From Candidatus Micrarchaeota archaeon (lineage in GTDB: Archaea; Micrarchaeota; Micrarchaeia; Norongarragalinales; SBBD01): a stretch of 10,016 nt of DNA. Of this stretch, positions 145 through 10,016 are shown piece after piece. Position 1 is the stretch's first letter. Each line of letters opens with the position of its first letter. A program made the position numbers and the translations under genes. The notes below the pieces were generated by a model. It was not told the origin of the DNA. It saw nothing but the letters and a program-made list of their open reading frames with translations, and searched no databases. Location of the stretch: contig JBBSVW010000062.1 in assembly GCA_038046605.1 (NCBI GenBank), positions 1 to 10,016 of the forward strand, given 5' to 3'.

Positions 145-246
145 TGCCTTTCTTTTTTCCGAGGGGCTTTTATCTTCCTTGAAGAGCCGTAAAGCTCTTT
201 GAGGCCATGCAGAACTTTGTTCTGCTTGGTCGCGAAAGAAAAAAGG
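145..246 (-). repeat. Palindromic MITE/REP-like element, copy 1 (upstream of tRNA-Ser)
   Basis: Imperfect terminal inverted repeats (CCTTTCTTTTTTC 147-159 / GAAAGAAAAAAGG 234-246) enclose two hairpins: TTGAAGAGC-cgtaaa-GCTCTTTGA (179-202) and GGCCA-t-GCAGAAC-ttt-GTTCTGC-t-TGGTC (203-231). The reverse complement aligns with 3487-3567. Confidence 0.65.
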
Positions 247-286
247 TTGTGCCGGGATGGCTGAGCGGTCAAGGCGCCAGCCTGGA

Positions 287-325
287 AGCTTTCTTCCTAA
301 ATTGTTTAGGCAGAAAATACAGGGA
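287..325 (+). other. tRNA-Ser anticodon-loop intron, 39 nt (36/37 or 37/38; boundary can slide)
   Basis: Internal hairpin TTTCT-t-CCTAAA-ttg-TTTAGG-c-AGAAA. The best 4-bp central helix is CCTG(281-284)/CAGG(320-323) with GAA bulges, which gives 36/37. A GGAA direct repeat makes 288-326 (37/38) yield the same mature tRNA. Confidence 0.8.
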
Positions 326-358
326 AAGCTGGTTCTCGAAAGGGATCCTGGGTTCGAA

Positions 359-458
359 TTCCTCCGCACGGAGGTTGCCTAACGAACTTCTTTTGGAATG
401 TGTAGATTCCAGAAAATTTTTGTTGCATTCATTTTGGGCGCCGTGCAAGGGACGAATA
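359..458 (+). other. tRNA-Ser T-loop intron at 59/60, 100 nt
   Basis: Strict bulge-helix-bulge: T stem as outer helix, central helix TTCG(353-356)/CGAA(453-456), bulges AAT(357-359) and TAT(457-459), inner helix TCCT/GGGA followed by GCACGG/CCGTGC. Confidence 0.9.
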
Positions 459-497
459 TCCCAGTCCCGGCGCTTTTATTTACGTCAAGTGGATTTG

Positions 498-1292
498 ATG
501 ACAGAGCAAAATCAGCAAAATGCGCATGCAAAGCCCCCTGTAGCGAATGCTAATTCCCAGGGGCAGGCGTCAACCAATGCCCCAAAGCCTCATGTCCAGC
601 CAGCTAATCCCCAGCAGGGCTCGCCAGCACAAAAGCCGCAGGGCGCTCCACAGGGCGGAGCTCCAGCCCAGGGAGGGGCGCAGGCAAAACCATCTTCGGC
701 ACCGGTTCAAAAAGGCGCAATTCCAGCAGGAAAGCCCGGAGCCCCGGCAGCCTACAAGGTCGATGAAAACCCAAACTTCAGGGGAATTGTCCGAGTCGTT
801 GGCAAGGATCTGGACGGCCATTTCAATATTTACAAGGCGCTCCTTCGCGTAAAGGGCATAGGCGCAACGCTTGCAAGGACTCTTGAAAAAGTAATCATCA
901 GGGAGATGAAAATCACCAAATCTACGAGGGTCGGGGATCTAACTGAAGAGCAAATCGAGAAAATCGATGAGATTGCTAAGAACCCTTCAGCCCACGGCAT
1001 CAAGTCATTTTTACTAAACAGGCAAAAGGATAGGGAAACCGGGAAAAATTTGCACCTTCTCATGAACGATTTGATCTTTGCCCAAAGGCAGGATATCCAA
1101 ATCGAAAAGGACACCAAAACCTACAAGGGCTGGCGCATGACACTTGGGCAGCGTGTCCGCGGGCAGCACAGCAGGACAACTGGCAGGAGCGGATTCACAG
1201 TCGGGGTCATGAAAAAGGCAATCAAGGATCAGAAGGCGGCGGCGGCTACAAGTGCGCAGGACAAGAGCAAGCCATCTGAGAAGAAGAAATAA
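498..1292 (+). CDS. rps13: 30S ribosomal protein S13 (uS13) with long Q/P/A/G-rich N-terminal extension
   Basis: Archaeal uS13 motifs FRGIVRVVGKDLDG, ALLRVKGIG, FLLNRQKDRETG, TYKGWR..GQRVRGQHSRTTGR. The start was moved from 207 to ATG 498 because the longer ORF runs through tRNA-Ser. Confidence 0.93.
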   Translation: MTEQNQQNAHAKPPVANANSQGQASTNAPKPHVQPANPQQGSPAQKPQGAPQGGAPAQGGAQAKPSSAPVQKGAIPAGKPGAPAAYKVDENPNFRGIVRVVGKDLDGHFNIYKALLRVKGIGATLARTLEKVIIREMKITKSTRVGDLTEEQIEKIDEIAKNPSAHGIKSFLLNRQKDRETGKNLHLLMNDLIFAQRQDIQIEKDTKTYKGWRMTLGQRVRGQHSRTTGRSGFTVGVMKKAIKDQKAAAATSAQDKSKPSEKKK

Positions 1293-1307
1293 TAACTAGG
1301 GATCACG

Positions 1308-1895
1308 ATGGGAGCAAAAAGGCTAAGAAAAACCTACGAAAAGCCAAAGAAGCTGTGGGATAAGACAAGGATCGAAACCGAAAGGAAGCTCAAGGACGAG
1401 TACGGCCTAAAGAACGCAAGGGAAGTTTGGAAGATGCAAACCATCCTAAGGAAGATCCGGCGCGAGGCAAGGAGGCTATTGTCAGGCAAGGGAACCGACA
1501 TTGAAGAGAGGTCCAAGATGCTTATTGCAAGGATCCGGAAATTCCTAATCAAGAAAGAGCAAATCACGCTTGATGATGTTTTGACGCTTACAATCAGGGA
1601 CATTTTGGAGCGCAGGCTCCAGACAATTGTCTACAAGAAGCGCCTGGCAAAAAGCGTTAGGCAAGCAAGGCAGTTCATTGCGCATGGCCATATCGCAGTC
1701 AAGGGGATTAAAATCTCAGCGCCATCCTATTTAGTGAAATTCGACGAGGAGCAAATTGTGGAATGGTACGGGCATGCGCTTGAATCAAACCCCCACGTCG
1801 TGAAAACAAAGGAAAGCAAGGTTGAAGAGCCAATTGGAGCTGGCATTTCAGAACCATCCGAAATTAAGGAAGAACCAAAGGCAAGTGACAATTAA
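1308..1895 (+). CDS. rps4: 30S ribosomal protein S4 (uS4), archaeal type
   Basis: [53 protein letters not shown]; position in the S13-S4-S11-rpoD operon. Confidence 0.96.
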
Positions 1896-1897
1896 CC

Positions 1898-2479
1898 ATG
1901 TCAAACGAAATCAATTCAAAGGTTGCAGCAAAGGAAGGGGCAGCGCCAGTTTCAAGCCCAGCAGCTGCCCCTACAACAGCGCCAGTCGCATCATCTCCTG
2001 CTCCAGCAGCATCACCATCAACAAGTTCTTCACCCCAGCCAGAGCAAAGGAGGTTTGGGAGGGATGATAGGTACGAAAAGAAATACATTTTAAAGGAAGG
2101 CAAATGGGGGGTTGCGCACATCTACTCTTCAAAAAACGACACAATTATCACAATTACGGATTTATCCGGCGCCGAAACTATTTCAAAGGGAAGCGGCGGA
2201 ATGATCGTCAAGAATTCGAGGGAGGAAGGTTCACCCTACGCGGCAATGCAGGCGGCCTTCAAGGCGGCGGAAAAAGCCAAGGAGCGGGGGATTGTTGGAA
2301 TCAACATCCGCGTCAGGGCTCCTGGGGGCCACCACACAAAAACGCCAGGCTCGGGCGCGCAGGCGGCAATTAGGGCTCTAGCCAGATCGGGCCTTCGGAT
2401 TGGCAAAATAGAGGATGTGACGCCGGTGCCAACTGACACCACAAAGCGGCCGGGCGGAAAGAGGGGAAGGAGGGTTTGA
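1898..2479 (+). CDS. rps11: 30S ribosomal protein S11 (uS11) with A/P/S-rich N-terminal extension
   Basis: [72 protein letters not shown]. Confidence 0.96.
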
Positions 2480-2490
2480 GGCGTATAGAT

Positions 2491-3072
2491 ATGCAAATTG
2501 AAATTTTGAAAAACGAAGGGCCCAAATTGGAAGGAAAGGTAAAGGGCGCAAGCGTTGGGATCATGAACGCCCTTAGGAGGGCGGTTATCTCCGATCTTGA
2601 GTCATTTGCAATCGAGGAGGTGGACTTTTACGAAAACAACTCCGCGATGTTCAACGATTACCTTGCAAACAGGCTTGGAATGATCCCCCTCACATTCGAA
2701 AAAAGCGATACGGAAGGGGCGGATATCACACTTGCGCTCAATGCGGAAGGGCCGTGCATGGTTTATTCCCGCGACCTGAAAAGCTCGGATGAAAAGATCC
2801 GTGTTTACAATGACAACGTGCCAATCATCAAGCTTGCGGCAAACCAAAAGCTCCGGCTTGAGGCGCACGCCACAAGGGGTACAATGAAAAAGCATGCGAA
2901 ATTCCAATGCGCAATATTCTCGTACGAATATGATCTTGAAAAGAAAAACCCGGAGTTCGGGTTCTTTGTTGAAAGCTACAACAATTTGACGGGTGAAGAA
3001 CAGCTCATCCGCGCATTGAAATTACTTGGTGAAAAGGCGGAAATGCTATTGAAGGCAAAGGAGCTGAAGTAA
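2491..3072 (+). CDS. rpoD: DNA-directed RNA polymerase subunit D (Rpo3), short form
   Basis: NALRRAVI, FAIEEVDFYENNSAMFNDYLANRLGMIPL, GPCMVYSRDLKS, IIKLAANQKLRLEA..G..KKHAKFQ, FFVES. ATG 2491 was preferred over the TTG at 2476. Confidence 0.93.
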   Translation: MQIEILKNEGPKLEGKVKGASVGIMNALRRAVISDLESFAIEEVDFYENNSAMFNDYLANRLGMIPLTFEKSDTEGADITLALNAEGPCMVYSRDLKSSDEKIRVYNDNVPIIKLAANQKLRLEAHATRGTMKKHAKFQCAIFSYEYDLEKKNPEFGFFVESYNNLTGEEQLIRALKLLGEKAEMLLKAKELK

Positions 3073-3320
3073 TGTTAATACGTGTGATTCCGAACGCAAA
3101 AAAGTTCGGGATTGCCATCAGGGAAGGCAGGATCATTGTGCGGATAAAAGCCGCCGCAAGGGAAAATGCCGCAAACAAGGAATTGCTTACGGAGCTTAGG
3201 GAATTGACAGGGAAAAAAGTCCATCTGCAAAAAGGCGCAAGGGCCCGGAAAAAGGAAATTGTTTTCGAGGGTTTGGCCGATGAGGATGCAATGGTGCTTT
3301 TAAGGAAGGAGGCGGAATAG
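3072..3320 (+). CDS. DUF167 / UPF0235 (YggU-like) family protein
   Basis: IRVIPNAKK, VRIKAAARENAANKEL, GARARKKEI match the DUF167 pattern (V.P.A....V...P..G.AN.EL...G..SR.K). Start overlaps the rpoD stop (TAATG). Confidence 0.75.
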   Translation: MLIRVIPNAKKFGIAIREGRIIVRIKAAARENAANKELLTELRELTGKKVHLQKGARARKKEIVFEGLADEDAMVLLRKEAE

Positions 3321-3379
3321 GAGCCTACCTTCAATAAAGCCTGCAGACATTTATTGCAGGGGTGGCAGAGCCTGGTCAA

Positions 3380-3434
3380 AAAAAATGAAAAGCCGTCCTT
3401 TTAAGAACAGATCGGCTCGATCATTTTTGTCCAA
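3380..3434 (+). other. tRNA-Leu D-loop intron at ~21/22, 55 nt
   Basis: Relaxed BHB: central helix GGTC(3374-3377)/GTCC(3429-3432) with 3 of 4 pairs, AAA bulges, 8-bp inner helix AAAAATGA(3381-3388)/TCATTTTT(3421-3428), then AGCCG/CGGCT. Confidence 0.82.
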
Positions 3435-3480
3435 ATGCGCAGGGTTGAGGTCTCTGTTCCTTAGGGATGCCTGGGTTCAA

Positions 3481-3728
3481 AGGCCTTGCTTTTCTTTTTT
3501 CCGACCGTGCAGAAAAAAATTTCTGCGCGGCCCCAAAGAGCTTCGCTCTTTGCGGAAAAGAAAAGCGATGGCGCCGCAATGCGCTAGAATCGCGAGATTC
3601 TAGGCATGCGCAGAATCCAAAGATTCTGCCGCAAAGAAAAAAGGTTTTGATGCGCGCATCATATGTGTTTCTTTGGCGCGGTGCCGTCCGCACCTTTCTT
3701 TCAAAAGAAAGGGGCAAGGCGCGGATAG
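3481..3728 (+). other. tRNA-Leu T-loop intron at ~58/59, 248 nt, multi-branched
   Basis: Removal restores GGG-TTCAAAT-CCC. Central helix GTTC(3475-3478)/GGAT(3723-3726) with two G-U pairs, bulges AAA and AGA, closing helix GCCTTGC(3483-3489)/GCAAGGC(3714-3720). Confidence 0.78.
3487..3567 (+). repeat. Palindromic MITE/REP-like element, copy 2 (inside the tRNA-Leu intron)
   Basis: Terminal inverted repeats GCTTTTCTTTTttCCG / CGGAAAAGAAAAGC enclose CCGTGCAGAAA-aaaa-TTTCTGCGCGG (3505-3530) and CAAAGAGC-ttc-GCTCTTTG (3534-3552). Confidence 0.65.
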
Positions 3729-3770
3729 ATCCCAGCCCCTGCATAATTTTTGTAATTGGAGAGGATTTGC

Positions 3771-4130
3771 ATGAAACGAGGAAGTGAAATTGGAAGCTTA
3801 AGGAAGCTAATTGTTGATCTCGAGCGCACCGGGAGGAAGGGCAAGGCGCCAATTTGGACAAGGGTTGCATACATGCTCTCGAAGCCAACGCGCCAGCGCT
3901 GCGAAGTCAACCTGAACAAGATTAATTCCGTTACTAACGATGGTGACGTGATTGTCATTCCGGGAAAAGTCCTTGGAATTGGCAAAATAGAAAAGAAGGT
4001 GAAAGTGGCAGCATTCCGCTTCTCCAAATCCGCCATTTCAAAGATGGCTAAAGCTGGTATCGAACATGTTAGCATTGAAAAACTCCTGGCAACAAACGCA
4101 AAGGGCGCAAAAGTGAGGATCATAGTATGA
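3771..4130 (+). CDS. rpl18e: 50S ribosomal protein L18e (eL18)
   Basis: APIWTRVAYMLSKPTRQRCEVNLNKI, VIVIPGKVLGIG, VKVAAFRFSKSAISK. ATG 3771 follows a GGAGAGG ribosome-binding site. Confidence 0.94.
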   Translation: MKRGSEIGSLRKLIVDLERTGRKGKAPIWTRVAYMLSKPTRQRCEVNLNKINSVTNDGDVIVIPGKVLGIGKIEKKVKVAAFRFSKSAISKMAKAGIEHVSIEKLLATNAKGAKVRIIV

Positions 4131-4534
4131 TAGTAATAGACGCCGATGGGGCAATTGTAGGAAGGCTTGCAGCAATAGTTGCCAAGCGGTCACTCCAGGG
4201 GGAGGAAGTGGTCATTGTGAACGCGGAAAAAGCGGTCATCAGCGGGGATCCCCTCAAAACCAAGGAAAAATATTACAACAGGAGGCAGATGACAAACAAG
4301 GCAAATCCAGCTGAGGCGGCAAAGTGGCCGCGAAGGCCGGATTTATTGCTAAAGCGCATCATTACAGGCATGCTGCCAAAGCACTCGGGCAGGGGCAAGG
4401 CGGCGGGTTCCCGCATCAAGGCGTTCCTTGGGGTACCAAAGGAATATGCCGGAAAGGAAACAAAATTTGAGTTCACATCCGCAAGGCTTGCCAACAAATA
4501 CATGAATTTAAAGGAATTGACGCAAGGAATCTAA
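4127..4534 (+). CDS. rpl13: 50S ribosomal protein L13 (uL13)
   Basis: MIVIDADGAIVGRLAAIVAK..L.GEEVVIVNAEKAVISG, PRRPDLLLKRIITGMLP; ATGA overlap with rpl18e. Confidence 0.96.
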   Translation: MIVIDADGAIVGRLAAIVAKRSLQGEEVVIVNAEKAVISGDPLKTKEKYYNRRQMTNKANPAEAAKWPRRPDLLLKRIITGMLPKHSGRGKAAGSRIKAFLGVPKEYAGKETKFEFTSARLANKYMNLKELTQGI

Positions 4535-4542
4535 GTGATAAT

Positions 4543-5010
4543 ATGACGGAAATCGCTCAGGAAAAGGAGGCCCAAAAAGTTGCCGACGCATTGATTGGCG
4601 CTGACAAGAAGAAGAAAAGGAAGGCAATTGTCACAAGGGGCAAACGCAAGGAGGCAATTGCGCGCGCGACCATTGTCGAGGGATCCGGAAAAATTTACAT
4701 CAACGGCAAAATGCTTAGCTCATATGATTCACCCTTCCTTAACGAGGTTGTGGGCGAGCCGCTGAATTTTGTAACGGATCACAATTTCGATATCCGAATC
4801 AATGTTCGCGGCGGGGGCTTTTCGGGACAGGCGCAGGCAGCAAGGACCGCAATTGCCAGGGCGCTTGTAAAATTCACCAAGGATGACAAATTGAAAGCGG
4901 CATACGTTGCTTATGACCGCAGCCTTCTAGTGGAGGATCCAAGGCGCGTTGAACCGAAGAAATTCAAGGGCCCAAAGGCAAGGGCAAGGTTCACGAAATC
5001 ATACCGTTAA
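4543..5010 (+). CDS. rps9: 30S ribosomal protein S9 (uS9)
   Basis: GKRKEAIARA, VRGGGFSGQAQAARTAIARALV, YDRSLLVEDPRRVEPKKFKGPKARARFTKSYR. Confidence 0.96.
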   Translation: MTEIAQEKEAQKVADALIGADKKKKRKAIVTRGKRKEAIARATIVEGSGKIYINGKMLSSYDSPFLNEVVGEPLNFVTDHNFDIRINVRGGGFSGQAQAARTAIARALVKFTKDDKLKAAYVAYDRSLLVEDPRRVEPKKFKGPKARARFTKSYR

Positions 5011-5124
5011 CTTAATATTCTCCTCTCCAGTAGGCGATATGTCATATTGGGCATAGCATCGAACGGAAGTCAATTTTTTTCCGTAAAACATGCCCACCTA
5101 AATCATTGTAATTGGTAGATCATT

Positions 5125-5490
5125 GTGGCAAGAGGAAGGAAGCGAGTATTGAAAGTGTGCCCAGAATGCGGAAGCACGCAGGTCAAGCCCGCAAAGGAAA
5201 TTGACGAATGGGCATCCATTGAAGAGCAGATGAATTCGTCCGGCGGGGACAAGCACGAATGCCAGGAGTGCGGCTACAAGGGAGAGCTCATTGGGATTGC
5301 GGAAACCCCGGAGGAGGATGAAGCTTCAGAGGACAAGGAAGAGGATGAATTGGAGGCAAAACCGGCGCCCATAACAAAAGTGGAAGTGATAAAGCCGGAA
5401 AAAAGCACGGCGGTAAAATCGGGAAAAGCGCAAAAAGCAAAATCAAAAAAAGGCAAAAAAATAAAGCCGGGAAAGAAACTTAAAAAATAA
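5125..5490 (+). CDS. Hypothetical Zn-ribbon protein with acidic linker and Lys-rich tail
   Basis: CPECGS...CQECGY double CxxC knuckle, then EEDEASEDKEEDE, then a K-rich C-terminus. GTG start; same strand as the operon and fills the gap between rps9 and rpoN. Confidence 0.75.
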   Translation: MARGRKRVLKVCPECGSTQVKPAKEIDEWASIEEQMNSSGGDKHECQECGYKGELIGIAETPEEDEASEDKEEDELEAKPAPITKVEVIKPEKSTAVKSGKAQKAKSKKGKKIKPGKKLKK

Positions 5491-5587
5491 ATAATAAAAA
5501 TGAGCAAGTGGGATGGGACAATAAAAATCCAAATTTCTAAATCAATAATTCTTAAAATTAATCCAATAATAAAATGGTCGATGAAAT

Positions 5588-5803
5588 ATGATGATTCCCG
5601 TCCGGTGCTTTTCCTGTGGCAAGGTCGTTGCCGACAAGTACTATGAGTTCCGCGAGGAAATTGAGAAGACAAAGCACATGCATAAGGAAGGGGACGTTGG
5701 GAAGATCCTGGATAAGCTGGGGTATGAGCGCTACTGCTGCCGAAGGATGGTGCTTTCGCAGGAGGAGCTGATTGATGAAATATTGCCTTATTCCAGATAT
5801 TAG
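5588..5803 (+). CDS. rpoN: DNA-directed RNA polymerase subunit N (Rpo10)
   Basis: [14 protein letters not shown]...[15 protein letters not shown], the RPB10/RpoN signature. Confidence 0.97.
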
Positions 5804-5938
5804 GATTTCCGTCTGCTTATTTTTTGCAGCCCATCCCCACGCGGCTTTGCGCATGAATTGGTTGAAGACTACGGCCGCTTGAGGTTTGCTGCTCCCATAT
5901 CTACAGCCACTCGGATTTTTTATGCAGATCCTAACCAT

Positions 5939-5954
5939 GCAAAAAGTATATTAA
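5939..5954 (+). promoter_or_regulatory. Putative BRE/TATA promoter of the aro operon
   Basis: GCAAAAAG-TATATTAA ends ~25 nt upstream of the leader ATG (5979), the spacing expected for a near-leaderless archaeal transcript. Confidence 0.6.
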
Positions 5955-5978
5955 CCAGAACCCGCACAACGTATTCCT

Positions 5979-6053
5979 ATGGCTAGGGAAGTTCTTTCAA
6001 AATCTGTTTCTGCAGGTTTCTCTAGCTTCGGCTATTTCTATTTCTGGCAATAA
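5979..6053 (+). CDS. Putative aromatic amino acid-sensing leader peptide (24 aa, MAREVLSKSVSAGFSSFGYFYFWQ)
   Basis: ATG 5979 to TAA 6051-6053. Five consecutive aromatic codons TAT TTC TAT TTC TGG, plus two more Phe codons, directly upstream of the shikimate pathway genes. Confidence 0.8.
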   Translation: MAREVLSKSVSAGFSSFGYFYFWQ

Positions 6054-6133
6054 GCCCTCGGCAATCCGCTGATGGGCTTCTTTCCTGCGGGTCAGCAGCT
6101 CGCCAGGAAGGACGGGCATTTTTCTCTACTTTT
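6041..6133 (+). promoter_or_regulatory. Attenuator-like region: alternative hairpins followed by a U-rich tract
   Basis: Hairpin A AAGCCC-TCGGC/GCTGA-t-GGGCTT (6052-6079). Hairpin B TCTTTCCTG-CGGG/CTCG-c-CAGGAAGGA (6079-6112). Competing pairings GCTGAT(6068-6073)/GTCAGC(6091-6096) and TTTCTGGC(6041-6048)/GCCAGGAA(6102-6109). TTTTTCTCTACTTTT at 6119-6133. Confidence 0.62.
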
Positions 6134-6170
6134 AGCTTTACCCCTGTCAATCAACAAATAGGTGAATGAA

Positions 6171-7187
6171 ATGATCATAGTAATGAAGCCGGAGGCTACG
6201 AAGGAGGAAATAGAGCATGTGAAAAGCGTGGTGGAAAAGCACGGCCTTGGCATCCACAAGCTGAGCCGGGGCGTGAAGCAAACGGTCATTGGGCTGGTGG
6301 GAAACACCCGCGCGATCTCTGAGAAGCAGTTTGAGATTTTGGACGGTGTGGAGGAAGTCGTGCGCGTGCAGAAGGCATACAAGCTCGCGTCGCGCGAGTT
6401 CCAGAAGGAAAATACAATGGTGGAAGTGGACGGGGTAAAGATAGGCGGGGAAGAAATAGTTGTGATTGCGGGGCCGTGCGCAGTCGAGAGCAGGGACCAA
6501 TTTCTTGAGGCGGCGCTTGCGGTGAAAAAAAGTGGCGCAAAGATATTGCGGGGAAGCATATTCAAGCCGCGCACCTCGCCCTACGATTTCCAGGGAATCG
6601 GCACGGACGGCTTGAAGCTGCTGGAAGAGGCGCGGGATGCAACCGGCTTGCTGATTGAAACGGAGGTGATGCACCCAGAGCACGTGCGGATGGTTGCACC
6701 GTACGTAGACATGCTCAGGATCGGTGCCAGGAACATGCAGAACTTCGACCTGCTTAAGCAGGTGGGAAGAAGCGAAAAGCCCGCGATCCTGAAGAGGGGG
6801 CTTTCCGCAACCATACACGAATTCCTGATGGCGGCGGAATACATCCTAAGCGAAGGCAACCCCAACGTAATTTTGTGCGAGCGCGGCATAAGGACATTCG
6901 TTACGGAGACACGGAACACGCTGGATTTGAACGCGGTTCCGCTGGTAAAATCACTCACGCACCTGCCGATAATTGTGGACCCCTCGCATGGAACCGGAAA
7001 ATACGAACTGGTCGAGCCCATGAGCATGGCTTCGATTGCAGCCGGAGCAGACGGCCTGATGATAGAGGTGCACCCGCGGCCTGAGGAAGCACTGAGCGAC
7101 GGGCCGCAGCAATTGACGCCGAAGAGGTTCGGGGTGCTGATGCAGAATTGCCGGAAGGTCGCGGAAGCGGTTGGGAGGAGGATGTAA
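6171..7187 (+). CDS. aroF: 3-deoxy-7-phosphoheptulonate (DAHP) synthase, type I-beta with N-terminal regulatory (ACT/ferredoxin-like) domain
   Basis: MIIVMK N-terminal domain as in the Thermotoga-type enzyme; [57 protein letters not shown]...SDGPQ. ATG 6171 follows an AGGTGA ribosome-binding site. Confidence 0.95.
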
Positions 7188-7188
7188 A

Positions 7189-8262
7189 ATGGACGAAATT
7201 GCACTCGAAGTGAAGGGAGAAAGCAAGAAGTGCAGAATCCTAGTGGACGGCCGTGCGAAGGAAGCGATGGAAATTGCGGATGCACTGCACCCATCCAAAA
7301 TCGCGATAATCTGCTCCCCCAACACAAGGAGGATAGCAGAAGGCCTTGCGGATGAGGCAAAAAACGCAGCAATAATTCAGGTTTCCGACGGGGAGCGGGC
7401 GAAAAATTTGGGGTCTGTGGAAAGGCTGTATTCTTCGTTCCTGAAGGCGCGCTTGAACAGGAAATCCGTTGCGATAATCGTGGGGGGAGGCTCGCTCGGA
7501 GATACTGCCGCGTTCGCATGCTCGACTTTCATGCGCGGCATCCGGTTCATTCAGGTTCCGACAACCCTGCTGGCAATGGCCGACAGCAGCATCGGCGGCA
7601 AAAACGGCGTCAATTTCATGGGAAAGAACCTGGTAGGGACATTCGCGCAGCCATCAGCAGTGGTGATTGATTTTTCCCTCCTGAAAACGCTTCCGAGAGC
7701 GCAGATTCAAAACGGGATTGCCGAAATAGTGAAGTGCGGCTGCATCCGCGATGGGGCGCTTTTCAGTTTCATGGGCAAGAACGCTGGAAAAATTATTGGG
7801 CTGGAAGCGGAAGCGCTAGAATTCGCCGTCTCACGCGCAATAAAAATCAAAATGGGGATCGTTTCCAAGGATGAGACGGAAGAGCTGCACGGAAGCGGGA
7901 AGGGCCGCATGCTGCTTAATTTCGGCCATACGGTAGGGCATGCGCTGGAGAGAATAAGCAACTACGGGCTCCAGCACGGGGAAGCGGTTGCAATAGGAAT
8001 GGTAAAAGAAGCGGAAATTTGCGAACGGCTGGGAATTTGCGAAATCGGGACATCGGAAAAAATCGGCAAACTCCTGGAAAAATTCGGCCTGCCAACGCGG
8101 ATTGCTGGAAAAATCCCATTGCAAAAATTAGTTGCGCGGATGAGATTGGACAAGAAGAACATCTCGGGTAAAATCAGGCTTGCAGGGCTGCGGAAAATAG
8201 GGGAAGGGACAATTGTTGAAAATGTTGATGAACGCATGATTCGCGGGGTTTTGGGAAGATGA
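7189..8262 (+). CDS. aroB: 3-dehydroquinate synthase
   Basis: DGERAK, GGGSLGDTAAF, FMRGIRFIQVPTTLLAMADSSIGGKNGVN, KNLVGTFAQP, AEIVK, LNFGHTVGHALE, HGEAVAIGM, DKK. ATG 7189 lies just after the aroF stop. Confidence 0.95.
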   Translation: MDEIALEVKGESKKCRILVDGRAKEAMEIADALHPSKIAIICSPNTRRIAEGLADEAKNAAIIQVSDGERAKNLGSVERLYSSFLKARLNRKSVAIIVGGGSLGDTAAFACSTFMRGIRFIQVPTTLLAMADSSIGGKNGVNFMGKNLVGTFAQPSAVVIDFSLLKTLPRAQIQNGIAEIVKCGCIRDGALFSFMGKNAGKIIGLEAEALEFAVSRAIKIKMGIVSKDETEELHGSGKGRMLLNFGHTVGHALERISNYGLQHGEAVAIGMVKEAEICERLGICEIGTSEKIGKLLEKFGLPTRIAGKIPLQKLVARMRLDKKNISGKIRLAGLRKIGEGTIVENVDERMIRGVLGR

Positions 8263-9416
8263 ACATTGCATTGGTGGGATTGATGGGTGCCGGGAAGAGC
8301 AGCGTCGGAAGGGCAGTTGCACGCCGGCTGAAAATGAGATTCGCAGACACGGATGAGATGATTGAGATGGCGCAATGCGCAACAATTGCGCAAATTTTCG
8401 AGTCGCAGGGCGAGGAGGCATTCAGGCAAATGGAAAAACTGGCAATCCGGAGCGCCGCGTCGGAGGAAAATGCGGTGATCTCAACAGGCGGAGGCGCATT
8501 GCTATTGGCGGAAAATCTCCAGGCCCTAAGGGAGAATTCGGTGTTGTTCTACTTGAAGGCGAGGCCGGAGGTGCTTGCAGAGCGTATCAAGAATAACTTG
8601 GAGAGGCCGCTTCTCACGGGAATGGGCAAAACGGCCAAAATAACGCGTCTCCTGAAGCATCGGGAGGAAAAATACCTGCAGGCGGATTTCGTTATCGATG
8701 CGAATGGCCCGATCGAAAGCACTTCCGCAATAATTTTACATAAATTAAAATCGAAAGCGGCGCTGGTGGCAGTGATTGCGGAAGAGGATATTGGCGCACT
8801 TCTCAGGAAAATCAATGCCGCTAAAAAAAGGGGGGCCGAAATTGCGGAGTTGAGGCTCGACTTCATGAAATCGCCCACGCCAGAGAATGTGAAAAAGGCC
8901 GTTTCAAAATGCCGGAAAGCGGGATTGAAATGCATAATCACTTGCAGGGAAAAGCGAGAGGGCGGCAAGTGGAAAATTGCAAATAAAATGGAATTGCTGA
9001 AAAAGGCCTTGGAAGACGGAGCGGATTTTATCGATCTGGAATTTTCCCTCGGAAAAATTGCTGATTTTCCCAAATCTAAAGTGATCGTTTCGTACCATAA
9101 TCTCAGAAAAACACCACCATTGGGAATTCTTATTCGGCTTATGGAAAAAATGAGCAAGGCCGGTAAAATTGTGAAAATCGTGTGCAAAACGCCCAACTTT
9201 GAAGATCAAAAAGCGCTTATGCGGCTGCTGGAAACAGCAAAAAAAAGGCAAATAAGATTGATCGCATTTGGCGTGGGAAGGGGCTCGAAGAGGAGCCGAA
9301 TCGTTGCAAGCCTGACGGGCTCGCGTTTCGTGTATGGGCATCTAGGTTTTTCGGTAGCTGAAGGGCAGCCAAGCTTTTCCGAGTTGAAAGGGGTGTTCGA
9401 TGGATGGAAGGGATGA
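8259..9416 (+). CDS. Bifunctional shikimate kinase (AroK, P-loop type) / type I 3-dehydroquinate dehydratase (AroD) fusion
   Basis: N-terminal ~165 aa: GLMGAGKSSVGR, FADTD, IFESQGEEAFRQME, VISTGGG, RPLL. C-terminal part: AELRLD, ITCREKREGG, DFIDLE, IVSYHN, IVKIV, SRI, AEGQ. Confidence 0.9.
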   Translation: MNIALVGLMGAGKSSVGRAVARRLKMRFADTDEMIEMAQCATIAQIFESQGEEAFRQMEKLAIRSAASEENAVISTGGGALLLAENLQALRENSVLFYLKARPEVLAERIKNNLERPLLTGMGKTAKITRLLKHREEKYLQADFVIDANGPIESTSAIILHKLKSKAALVAVIAEEDIGALLRKINAAKKRGAEIAELRLDFMKSPTPENVKKAVSKCRKAGLKCIITCREKREGGKWKIANKMELLKKALEDGADFIDLEFSLGKIADFPKSKVIVSYHNLRKTPPLGILIRLMEKMSKAGKIVKIVCKTPNFEDQKALMRLLETAKKRQIRLIAFGVGRGSKRSRIVASLTGSRFVYGHLGFSVAEGQPSFSELKGVFDGWKG

Positions 9417-10016
9417 AGGTTTTCGGGGTGATGGGAGGCGAAGGGGTAGCGGAGCATTCTCTCAGCCCTAGAATCTGGAATGCAGTATTCAGGAAGAGAA
9501 AAATTAACGCGGTTTACGGTGCCTTTGAAGTAAGGGAGAAGGAGTTGGCGCGAGCGGTGGAGGGAATCCGAACTCTCGGCATATCCGGGGTGAACATCAC
9601 AACTCCGCACAAAATTAAGGCCGTGAAATTTATTGATGAAATCTCTCCCGAAGTTGGAAGAATCGGCGCAGTAAACACAATTTCCAATAAAAATGGAATT
9701 CTCAGGGGATTCAACACGGATGCGAGCGCGCTGAAAAGGTTATTGCGAAACGAAAAAAAAGGGAAGGTGGTGATACTCGGCGCAGGCGGTGCTGCACGTG
9801 CGGCAGCGTTTGCGGCAGCTACGGCGGGAGAAATAATTATGGCAAACCACACCCCCTCAAACGCGATAGAAATTATTCGAAAAATGGGGTTGTCGATGAA
9901 TGCCAGAGCGCATGTGCTGAATGGGCTGGAGGCCGGAATCACCGATACGGACATAGTCATCAATTGCACTCCGATAGGGATGTACGCATCCGGAACCCCG
10001 CTTGAAGCAAGATTGC
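9413..10016 (+). CDS. aroE: Shikimate dehydrogenase (3' end beyond the window; not in the ORF track)
   Basis: Manual translation gives MKVFGVMG..HSLSPRIWN, GVNITTPHK, IGAVNTI, GFNTD, VVILGAGGAARA, DIVINCTPIGM. ATGA overlap with the upstream stop; an alternative in-frame ATG is at 9404. The frame is open to the window end. Confidence 0.93.
   Translation, partial: MKVFGVMGGEGVAEHSLSPRIWNAVFRKRKINAVYGAFEVREKELARAVEGIRTLGISGVNITTPHKIKAVKFIDEISPEVGRIGAVNTISNKNGILRGFNTDASALKRLLRNEKKGKVVILGAGGAARAAAFAAATAGEIIMANHTPSNAIEIIRKMGLSMNARAHVLNGLEAGITDTDIVINCTPIGMYASGTPLEARL

Follow-up and report, generated by a model that had tools for sequence, protein, structure and literature searches.

A putative ribosome-sensing leader upstream of the shikimate-pathway operon of a Micrarchaeota archaeon

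The locus and its leader

The window, i.e. the whole stretch of DNA that was analysed, is an entire contig of 10,016 bases (JBBSVW010000062.1) from a Candidatus Micrarchaeota archaeon, the genome of which (GCA_038046605.1) comprises 1.64 Mb and is 90.7% complete. The subject of this study is a candidate regulatory element that sits within the 367-nucleotide (nt) gap between rpoN and the gene for 3-deoxy-D-arabino-heptulosonate 7-phosphate (DAHP) synthase and that is made up of a short open reading frame (ORF) rich in aromatic codons, two hairpins and a U run. All coordinates are those of the window and all features lie on its forward strand. Directly upstream of the gap, Pfam assigned archaeal genes for S13, S4, S11, an RpoD-like protein, L18e, L13, S9 and RpoN (207-5803). 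Directly downstream lies a shikimate-pathway operon (6171-10015) that, likewise on the basis of Pfam, encodes DAHP synthase with a ferredoxin-like domain (6171-7187), dehydroquinate synthase (7171-8262), a shikimate kinase-dehydroquinase fusion (8259-9416) and shikimate dehydrogenase (9404 to the end of the window). The Shine-Dalgarno sequence AGGTGA (6160-6165) is found upstream of the DAHP synthase ATG at 6171. The stop codon of rpoN is followed by a terminator-like T6 run (5820-5825), and another T6 run (5916-5921) is located between that run and the promoter of the leader.

A TATA-like box (TATATTAA, 5947-5954) ends 24 nt 5' of the ATG at 5979 that opens a leader ORF of 24 codons (5979-6053, translated as MAREVLSKSVSAGFSSFGYFYFWQ and closed by a stop codon), so that the leader mRNA probably lacks a 5' untranslated region (leaderless) or has one of just a few nt. 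All seven aromatic codons of this ORF fall in the last 11 of its codons, and they make up seven of the ten codons of a control block at 6018-6047 (F6018, F6027, Y6033, F6036, Y6039, F6042 and W6045). A short ORF of this kind with aro genes downstream, which is a feature of leader-peptide attenuators, is thus present.

The region as a whole folds better than 200 out of 200 shuffles (z -3.1). The start region of the ORF is joined to the first control codons by helix P1 (5981-6027; 5981-5990 paired with 6018-6027 over 10 base pairs, bp), which encloses a small hairpin (6002-6007 with 6012-6017); the folding energy of 5979-6030 is -16.8 kcal/mol. Hairpin A (6053-6078; 6053-6062 with 6068-6078, 10 bp, 6073 bulged, -15.3 kcal/mol) has the final base of the leader stop codon as its 5' end. 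It is followed by hairpin B (6079-6112; 6079-6092 with 6098-6112, 14 bp, C6103 bulged, loop 6093-6097, -18.7 kcal/mol), the apical part of which carries the motif GGGTCAGCAGCTC (6089-6101; consensus GGGTYRGCRRCTC) that emerged as conserved from the comparison of leaders. Then come a spacer, CGGGCA (6113-6118), and the presumed termination signal, which consists of the U runs encoded by T5 (6119-6123) and T4 (6130-6133). The first-pass annotation of the sequence had noted that the U run starts 6 nt after hairpin B, and this is correct (B ends at 6112, T5 starts at 6119). Hairpin B comes to adjoin the U run, as in an intrinsic terminator, only after extension by 3 bp, and with that extension the segment 6064-6118 folds at -22.5 kcal/mol as compared with -18.7 kcal/mol for B alone. 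A simple terminator scan gave no hit on this strand of the window. When positions 5400-6600 were compared with the leader families of Rfam (Phe_leader, Trp_leader and others), the best E-value was 6.1, far under gathering, and no Rfam match was obtained for 11 related loci. Among the sequencing runs recorded as RNA, none was listed as containing this stretch.

Conservation in related archaea

Among close genomes, 13 of 41 had DAHP synthase; for the order the count was 17 of 68 genomes, and for the class 78 of the 401 genomes sampled. The leader ORF is conserved at the same place in these relatives: an aromatic-rich short ORF precedes the enzyme gene at 48 of 73 loci (11 of 13 at the level of the order and 37 of the 60 class-level upstream regions that were fetched), and at the two order-level loci that lack it the enzyme gene lies directly behind another gene. 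A 12-nt codon block, AGCTTYRG[CA]TWY, is present on the forward strand of 41 of the 73 upstream regions and on the reverse strand of none. In 46 loci A/T-rich 8-mers concentrate 38 to 31 nt upstream of the leader ATG and show a second peak around -50.

The conservation extends to the pairing of the control codons with the start of their own ORF. In 25 class-level leaders P1 is paired for 79%, with compensatory changes in 6 of 15 pairs, as against at most 52% for slid controls; one of its pairs occurs as AU, GC, CG and UA in 7, 6, 5 and 2 sequences, respectively. In the 14 order-level leaders the ORF start pairs with the control block of its own locus at a mean of -13.7, compared with -11.6 for the control blocks of other loci (p=0.007), and in the window the own pair outdoes all 13 other-locus pairs. 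The same own-versus-other comparison between the control codons and the post-stop region gave a permutation p of 0.13 and yielded no conserved downstream pairing. The control codons pair upstream, and a helix between them and a downstream segment (the 1:2 helix of a classical attenuator) was not found. The helices P1 and P2 (see below) were specified by hand, so that the covariation counts lean to structures read from the sequences, although the slid controls favour the helices. RNAalifold, when run on the alignment of the 25 leaders, returned just three pairs.

Downstream of the stop codon the related leaders share their layout. The post-stop hairpin beats its shuffles (fraction at most 0.03) in 9 of the 14 order-level leaders, with a different sequence each time. 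In 9 of 15 order-level leaders the stop codon is followed at a distance of 60-73 nt by the start of a T run of at least four, and a CGGG-like spacer lies 5' of the U run in most leaders of the order. The upper stem of hairpin B shows a compensatory change in 3 of 7 pairs among eight leaders, and its loop is conserved. In the more distant class-level leaders the covarying counterpart of the stop-codon hairpin is P2 (GGAAAACCRC with GYGGUUUUCC), which in the same set of 25 is paired for 78-81%, with compensatory changes, versus at most 52% for slid controls. P2 pairs the U run of these leaders (GGUUUUCC) with a stretch of A that coincides with the leader stop or closely follows it. A further class-level pairing, P0 (GUGGUUU before the ATG with AAACCAC after the stop), is paired for 73% with nearly no covariation.

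Several other features of the related leaders were observed. In the class-level leaders L019-L061 the ATG is immediately preceded by GTGGTTT, and the post-stop hairpin is followed by a conserved block (YCUGAUGC, with UUAGNGGUAUUGAU further on). Many class-level peptides end in RYQENH, the codons of which form the 5' arm of the post-stop hairpin. In the leaders L003, L006, L004, L008, L007, L014 and L015 the distance from the stop to DAHP synthase is 133-212 nt and includes a third hairpin followed by T5-T6, which is predicted for both ribosome states; it is missing from the 117-nt post-stop leader of the window.

Folding of the leader under ribosome masks

The leader was folded with ribosome footprints masked, placing the A site at each of the seven aromatic codons, at the Gln codon or at the stop. 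Hairpin B was predicted with a probability of 0.83-0.93 under all masks, whereas P1 was gone in every state with a ribosome over the control codons. These predictions have a direct bearing on the first-pass annotation, according to which the last control codons compete for hairpin B, and which had itself named a single dominant fold under every mask as evidence against that idea: hairpin B is such a fold. The sequence strings on which the idea was built are all in place, namely TTTCTGGC (6041-6048), GCCAGGAA (6102-6109), GCTGAT (6068-6073), GTCAGC (6091-6096), GCCC (6054-6057) and GGGC (6074-6077 and 6114-6117). The first two are indeed complementary over 8 bp (seven Watson-Crick pairs and one G-U, -12.3 kcal/mol), but the predicted probability of the duplex is at most 0.08, and in related leaders the pairing is at chance level in 10 of 11 cases and borderline in one (z -2.1 to +0.6). 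The best duplex of the control codons (6027-6050) with 6054-6135 was equalled by 72 of 1000 dinucleotide shuffles; only when the target was narrowed post hoc to the 3' arm of B and the U run did this fall to 1 in 1000, and to 1 in 300 in another set. Likewise, the proposed GCUGAU/GUCAGC competition (-9.1 kcal/mol) and the choice of GCCC between its near and far GGGC partners (-9.6 and -8.8 kcal/mol) are possible as duplexes, while their predicted probability of formation is about zero; they are not conserved in the relatives either. According to these models the named competing pairings are not the switch. The broader claim that the wiring differs from the 1:2/2:3/3:4 scheme holds on other grounds, i.e. 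the presence of P1, the constancy of B and a toggle that is confined to hairpin A versus the base of B.

This toggle consists of the following. A ribosome whose A site is at W6045, at Q6048 or at the stop melts hairpin A, upon which G6076, C6077 and U6078 are predicted to pair with C6117, G6116 and G6115, and hairpin B extends until 1 nt separates it from the U run. In stalls at F6036 or Y6039, hairpin A is retained and the 6-nt gap to the U run remains. The core of B is never displaced; the mutual exclusion of antiterminator and terminator is restricted to A and the base of B. When only the RNA 3' of the ribosome was folded, the predicted probability of a helix adjoining the U run was 0.00 for F6036 and Y6039, 0.74 for F6042, 0.98 for W6045 and 0.84 for the stop, and 0.41-0.59 for the three earliest aromatic codons. 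The stop-state value ranged from 0.68 to 0.98 over footprint edges of +9 to +16 and temperatures of 15, 37 and 55 C.

A comparable change was predicted across related leaders, where the first 10 nt past the stop were removed to mimic a ribosome at the stop. In the 14 order-level leaders the mean stop-minus-stall change was +0.29, versus -0.05 +/- 0.09 for shuffled post-stop regions, and none of 100 shuffle means was as high. The toggle is strongest in five leaders from at least four genera (L001 +0.83, L003 +0.98, L006 +0.96, L015 +0.65 and L010 +0.44) and weak in four.

One long-range pairing was considered and rejected as a conserved element: the 5' end of the ORF with the 5' arm of B (5984-5991 with 6080-6087, -11.1 kcal/mol) lacks own-locus specificity among 12 leaders (p=0.875). 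In the window it is predicted with a probability of 0.64-0.90, exclusively in stall states and for transcripts that end at 6088-6104; it is specific to the window and is displaced once the 3' arm of B has been made.

A proposed mechanism and the points against it

Taken together, the archaeal ribosomal-protein and RNA polymerase genes directly upstream and the aro genes directly downstream, the conservation of the leader ORF, the conserved P1, post-stop hairpin and upper stem of B, and the toggle in the window and across leaders indicate that the region is probably a ribosome-sensing regulatory leader, and ribosome-sensed attenuation with a non-classical wiring is its best reading. The leader of this archaeal shikimate-pathway operon would sense the supply of charged Phe and Tyr tRNA, and to a lesser extent that of Trp, via the position of the first ribosome on the 24-codon and probably leaderless ORF. 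Hairpin A would act as the reader of that position. A ribosome that reaches W6045 or the stop would cover 6053-6062 and melt A, and the freed G6076, C6077 and U6078 would pair with G6115, G6116 and C6117, which would bring B to 1 nt from the U5 run. The extended B and the U5 run could then bring about hairpin-assisted termination ahead of DAHP synthase. With a ribosome stalled at F6036 or Y6039, and less cleanly at the earlier aromatic codons, A would stay, B would end 6 nt short and RNA polymerase would read on. Since P1 would hide the start codon after the control codons have been made, only the first, co-transcriptional ribosome would decide. The logic would be that of a bacterial attenuator, in which A is the antiterminator and the base of B the terminator, so that plenty leads to termination and starvation to read-through, but it would operate with a constant B core and three toggling basal pairs, and in the absence of a 1:2 helix. 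PMC13675443 describes termination by an archaeal RNA polymerase at terminators of the bacterial type, a process that a hairpin could enhance but that did not require one.

The specific step of termination through extension of B is put forward tentatively, and we consider it somewhat less probable than its negation, for a number of observations weigh against it. The toggle amounts to merely 3 bp on a constant B core, and the values for stalls at F6018, F6027 and often Y6033 are intermediate (0.3-0.6 at 37 C). It is absent or reversed in 5 of the 14 leaders (L005, L016, L002, L013 and, weakly, L014). The U-run anchors of the cross-leader comparison were chosen by eye, and three of its leaders come from one genus. 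An objective list of T runs yields, for relatives, additional modules of a hairpin and a T run that are formed in either state, which implies that such a module alone cannot be an efficient terminator there. The class-level relatives have no U run downstream of the post-stop hairpin. At the gene ends of the window's genome the hairpins before T5 runs are not enriched (mean z -0.18; 5.7% have a stable stem that ends at the run). Finally, A can refold after the ribosome departs from the stop, so that RNA polymerase would have to reach the U run while the ribosome is still there.

Alternative explanations

The output that was proposed in the first-pass annotation is a different one, namely that the position of the ribosome sets the exposure of the U/C-rich tract to aCPSF1/FttA rather than controlling a hairpin terminator. 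Both elements of an aCPSF1/FttA terminator are at hand: the U-rich tract in the leader and, encoded in the genome, an ortholog of the factor (TIGR03675, 820.6 bits versus a cut-off of 580.2). The KH domains of aCPSF1 bind the U-tract RNA of terminators, as described in PMC8716108, and in PMC11616081 it is proposed that FttA polices lapses in the coupling of transcription and translation. T5 runs occur within 60 nt in 210 of 771 gene-downstream regions of the genome, and at its gene ends the genome uses T runs without hairpins. In whole-leader folds the probability that the U run is unpaired drops from 0.93-0.98 with a ribosome at the stop to 0.43-0.62 in the mid-stall state. This drop, however, depends on a long-range pairing of the 5' end of the ORF with the U run (-7.1 kcal/mol), which we rejected: its own-locus mean (-6.5) is no better than that for other loci (-8.1), and 52% of shuffles do as well. 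Moreover, with only the downstream RNA folded the U run is unpaired in every state, and the pairings that were to govern the exposure are not predicted to form. For the window we therefore regard this explanation as unlikely. The situation in the class-level relatives is different in that P2 masks the U run and a terminating ribosome would unmask it; the pairing of the U run in a covarying helix makes an exposure mechanism possible for those relatives. A class-wide switch, in which the first ribosome on a leaderless aromatic ORF is read via P1 and the stop-adjacent hairpin and hands the U tract to aCPSF1/FttA, would be a generalization of this, but it is in our view doubtful to a similar degree. 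As to the factor itself, the TIGR03675 match (G000:C13:11375-14752, forward strand) falls into two parts (profile positions 2-353 and 343-630) that are separated by about 1.5 kb within a single open frame of 1154 amino acids, which suggests a large insertion, perhaps an intein.

The constancy of hairpin B across ribosome masks could also mean that its apical motif (6089-6101) binds a protein or RNA in trans that takes the decision, with the leader ORF serving only timing or coupling. In line with this, the GGGUYRGCRRCUC loop and upper stem form the best-conserved primary sequence 3' of the ORF, whereas hairpin A is wholly divergent between loci. The motif occurs once in the window's genome, however, and its 28 matches in the 68 genomes of the order do not exceed the approximately 27 of a reversed control, so that there is no regulon of the motif; a candidate factor was not found either, and the run of aromatic codons and its conservation would be left unexplained. 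A trans-acting factor is for these reasons improbable.

It is slightly less probable still that the leader is a chance ORF, or the degenerating or functionless remnant of a bacterial attenuator that was acquired with a transferred aro operon. The operon has several traits that would suit such an origin. DAHP synthase was not found with the query used in any of six other genomes of the genus, which makes the aro cluster look patchy in distribution; the shikimate kinase part of the fusion at 8259-9416 is of the bacterial Pfam type (SKI) and is joined to a type I dehydroquinase; and the DAHP synthase genes of bacterial relatives carry aromatic leaders with classic terminators. In a FastTree phylogeny of 169 enzymes one archaeal record, titled Woesearchaeota, pairs with a Calditrichota record, and neither the root nor the direction of transfer is established by this tree. 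Yet the order-level archaeal enzymes form one clade in it (local support 97), which also takes in a record titled Iainarchaeum and a metagenome contig. The occurrence of the leader ORF at 48 of the 73 archaeal loci, across many genera, TATA-like boxes at archaeal spacing, and the compensatory changes in P1 and P2 do not fit a relic either.

We attach a marginally lower likelihood to control of translation or mRNA stability, in which a stalled ribosome would alter access to the ribosome-binding site of DAHP synthase as in the ermC or mycobacterial type of regulation. The leader appears leaderless, as do the mycobacterial cases of bioRxiv 10.1101/834739; the minimum-energy folds of the whole leader pair 6028-6037 with the Shine-Dalgarno region; and in three relatives of one genus a segment comprising the U run and YACC can pair with GGUA(A/U)GG. 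Nevertheless, the mean unpaired probability of the ribosome-binding site over 12 leaders (0.49) is about the same as after shuffling of the sequence upstream (0.44). In the window the site is more accessible than in shuffles (0.70 versus 0.40), and its pairing with the control codons has a mean z of +0.14 and is equal for own and other loci (p=0.50).

Finally, a hungry-codon -1 frameshift that takes the ribosome through A, B and the U run is very improbable: the -1 frame of the window is open over 6038-6169, to 117 nt past the stop (TGA at 6167-6169, 1 nt before the DAHP synthase ATG), but in 47 leaders this frame closes at a median of 12 nt past the stop and reaches at least 60 nt in only 26%. 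The +1 frame has a median of 46 nt, and neither alternative frame is kept open among the leaders.

Relation to known systems

Leader-peptide attenuation is the textbook case of regulatory coupling between transcription and translation, with trpL, pheL and hisL of E. coli as leader-peptide attenuators of amino-acid operons. To our knowledge it has been described only for bacteria, and our full-text literature searches gave no archaeal case. The leader of the window resembles these bacterial attenuators in having a short ORF with end-product codons upstream of a biosynthetic operon, hairpins and a U run before the first gene, and a stop-adjacent hairpin that would be covered by a terminating ribosome, with the same predicted logic. 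It differs from them in that it is archaeal, has a TATA-type promoter and is probably translated leaderless, in that the control codons pair upstream in P1 instead of with a downstream region 2, and in that the large hairpin is constant, three basal pairs toggle, 6 nt separate the hairpin from the U run and no Rfam family matches.

A closer relation in terms of the enzyme is found in bacterial type I-beta DAHP synthases, which belong to the same family (51-61% identity to the window enzyme). Phe/Tyr-rich leaders precede the genes of several phyla (L112, L117, L153, L160, L137, L190, L113 and L150), with peptides that end in, for instance, FYFWQ-like or YYYWTQ sequences; in the tree L112, L117 and L153 fall near Rokubacteria records, L160 is from Calditrichota, and L137 and L190 are from Erysipelotrichaceae. 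By eye, these bacterial leaders differ from the archaeal one by long GC-rich stems followed by T runs and by classic overlapping alternatives.

The possible FttA route would have its counterpart in tnaC and mgtL, where leader control is Rho-dependent: in both cases a stop-proximal ribosome would gate the access of a termination factor to the nascent RNA. The candidate factor here, aCPSF1/FttA, is a nuclease and not a helicase, and the dependence on it is a prediction.

The mycobacterial polycysteine short ORFs have in common with the window leader that a leaderless first cistron is sensory and that the stall on a codon run is the signal; according to 10.1101/834739 the stall there blocks a structure that hides the ribosome-binding site, which for the present leader is unsupported by the tests on that site. 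With archaeal U-tract/aCPSF1 termination, as covered in PMC8716108 and PMC13675443, the locus shares the U4-U5 signal, the presence of the factor gene and the T runs without hairpins at gene ends, whereas in the window the U run is part of a 5' leader, downstream of a sensory ORF and two strong hairpins. The reviews of archaeal coupling and termination that were searched (PMC8116511 and PMC13675443) leave a leader with sensory ORF, hairpins and U run unmentioned, and the terms "attenuation", "attenuator" and "leader peptide" have zero occurrences in PMC8116511 (2021, archaeal coupling) and PMC13675443 (2026, termination signals).

If the aCPSF1/FttA explanation were true, the leader would give Archaea their first termination switch that responds to amino acids and is coupled to translation. 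The conserved sensory ORF and the covarying helices offer in any case a natural template for asking if ribosomes guide RNA polymerase in archaea, whether hairpins make a difference at the U-tract terminators of these organisms and whether FttA reads the position of the ribosome. The leader would also represent RNA-level regulation of a costly pathway in uncultured archaea with small genomes.

Other observations

In many class-level genomes (G208, G198, G300, G284, G260, G224, G228 and others) a trpE-like gene is located 5-7 kb from DAHP synthase on the same strand, so that the leader-controlled gene follows a trp cluster. None of 26 upstream regions of trpE-like genes had a convincing Trp- or aromatic-rich ORF; two contained weak ORFs with a GTG start. 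In the window's genome, up to about contig 69 of 106, ten of the matches listed for other sensory ORFs were inspected and none was convincing. Scans of metagenome and genome contigs with the enzyme, made for further leaders of the window type, gave mostly bacteria, and the relatives of G368 added none.

Within the cluster of ribosomal-protein and RNA polymerase genes of the window, ORFs of 121 (5125-5490) and 72 amino acids (3385-3603) have no Pfam match, and a DUF167 gene (3072-3320) lies between the RpoD-like and L18e genes.

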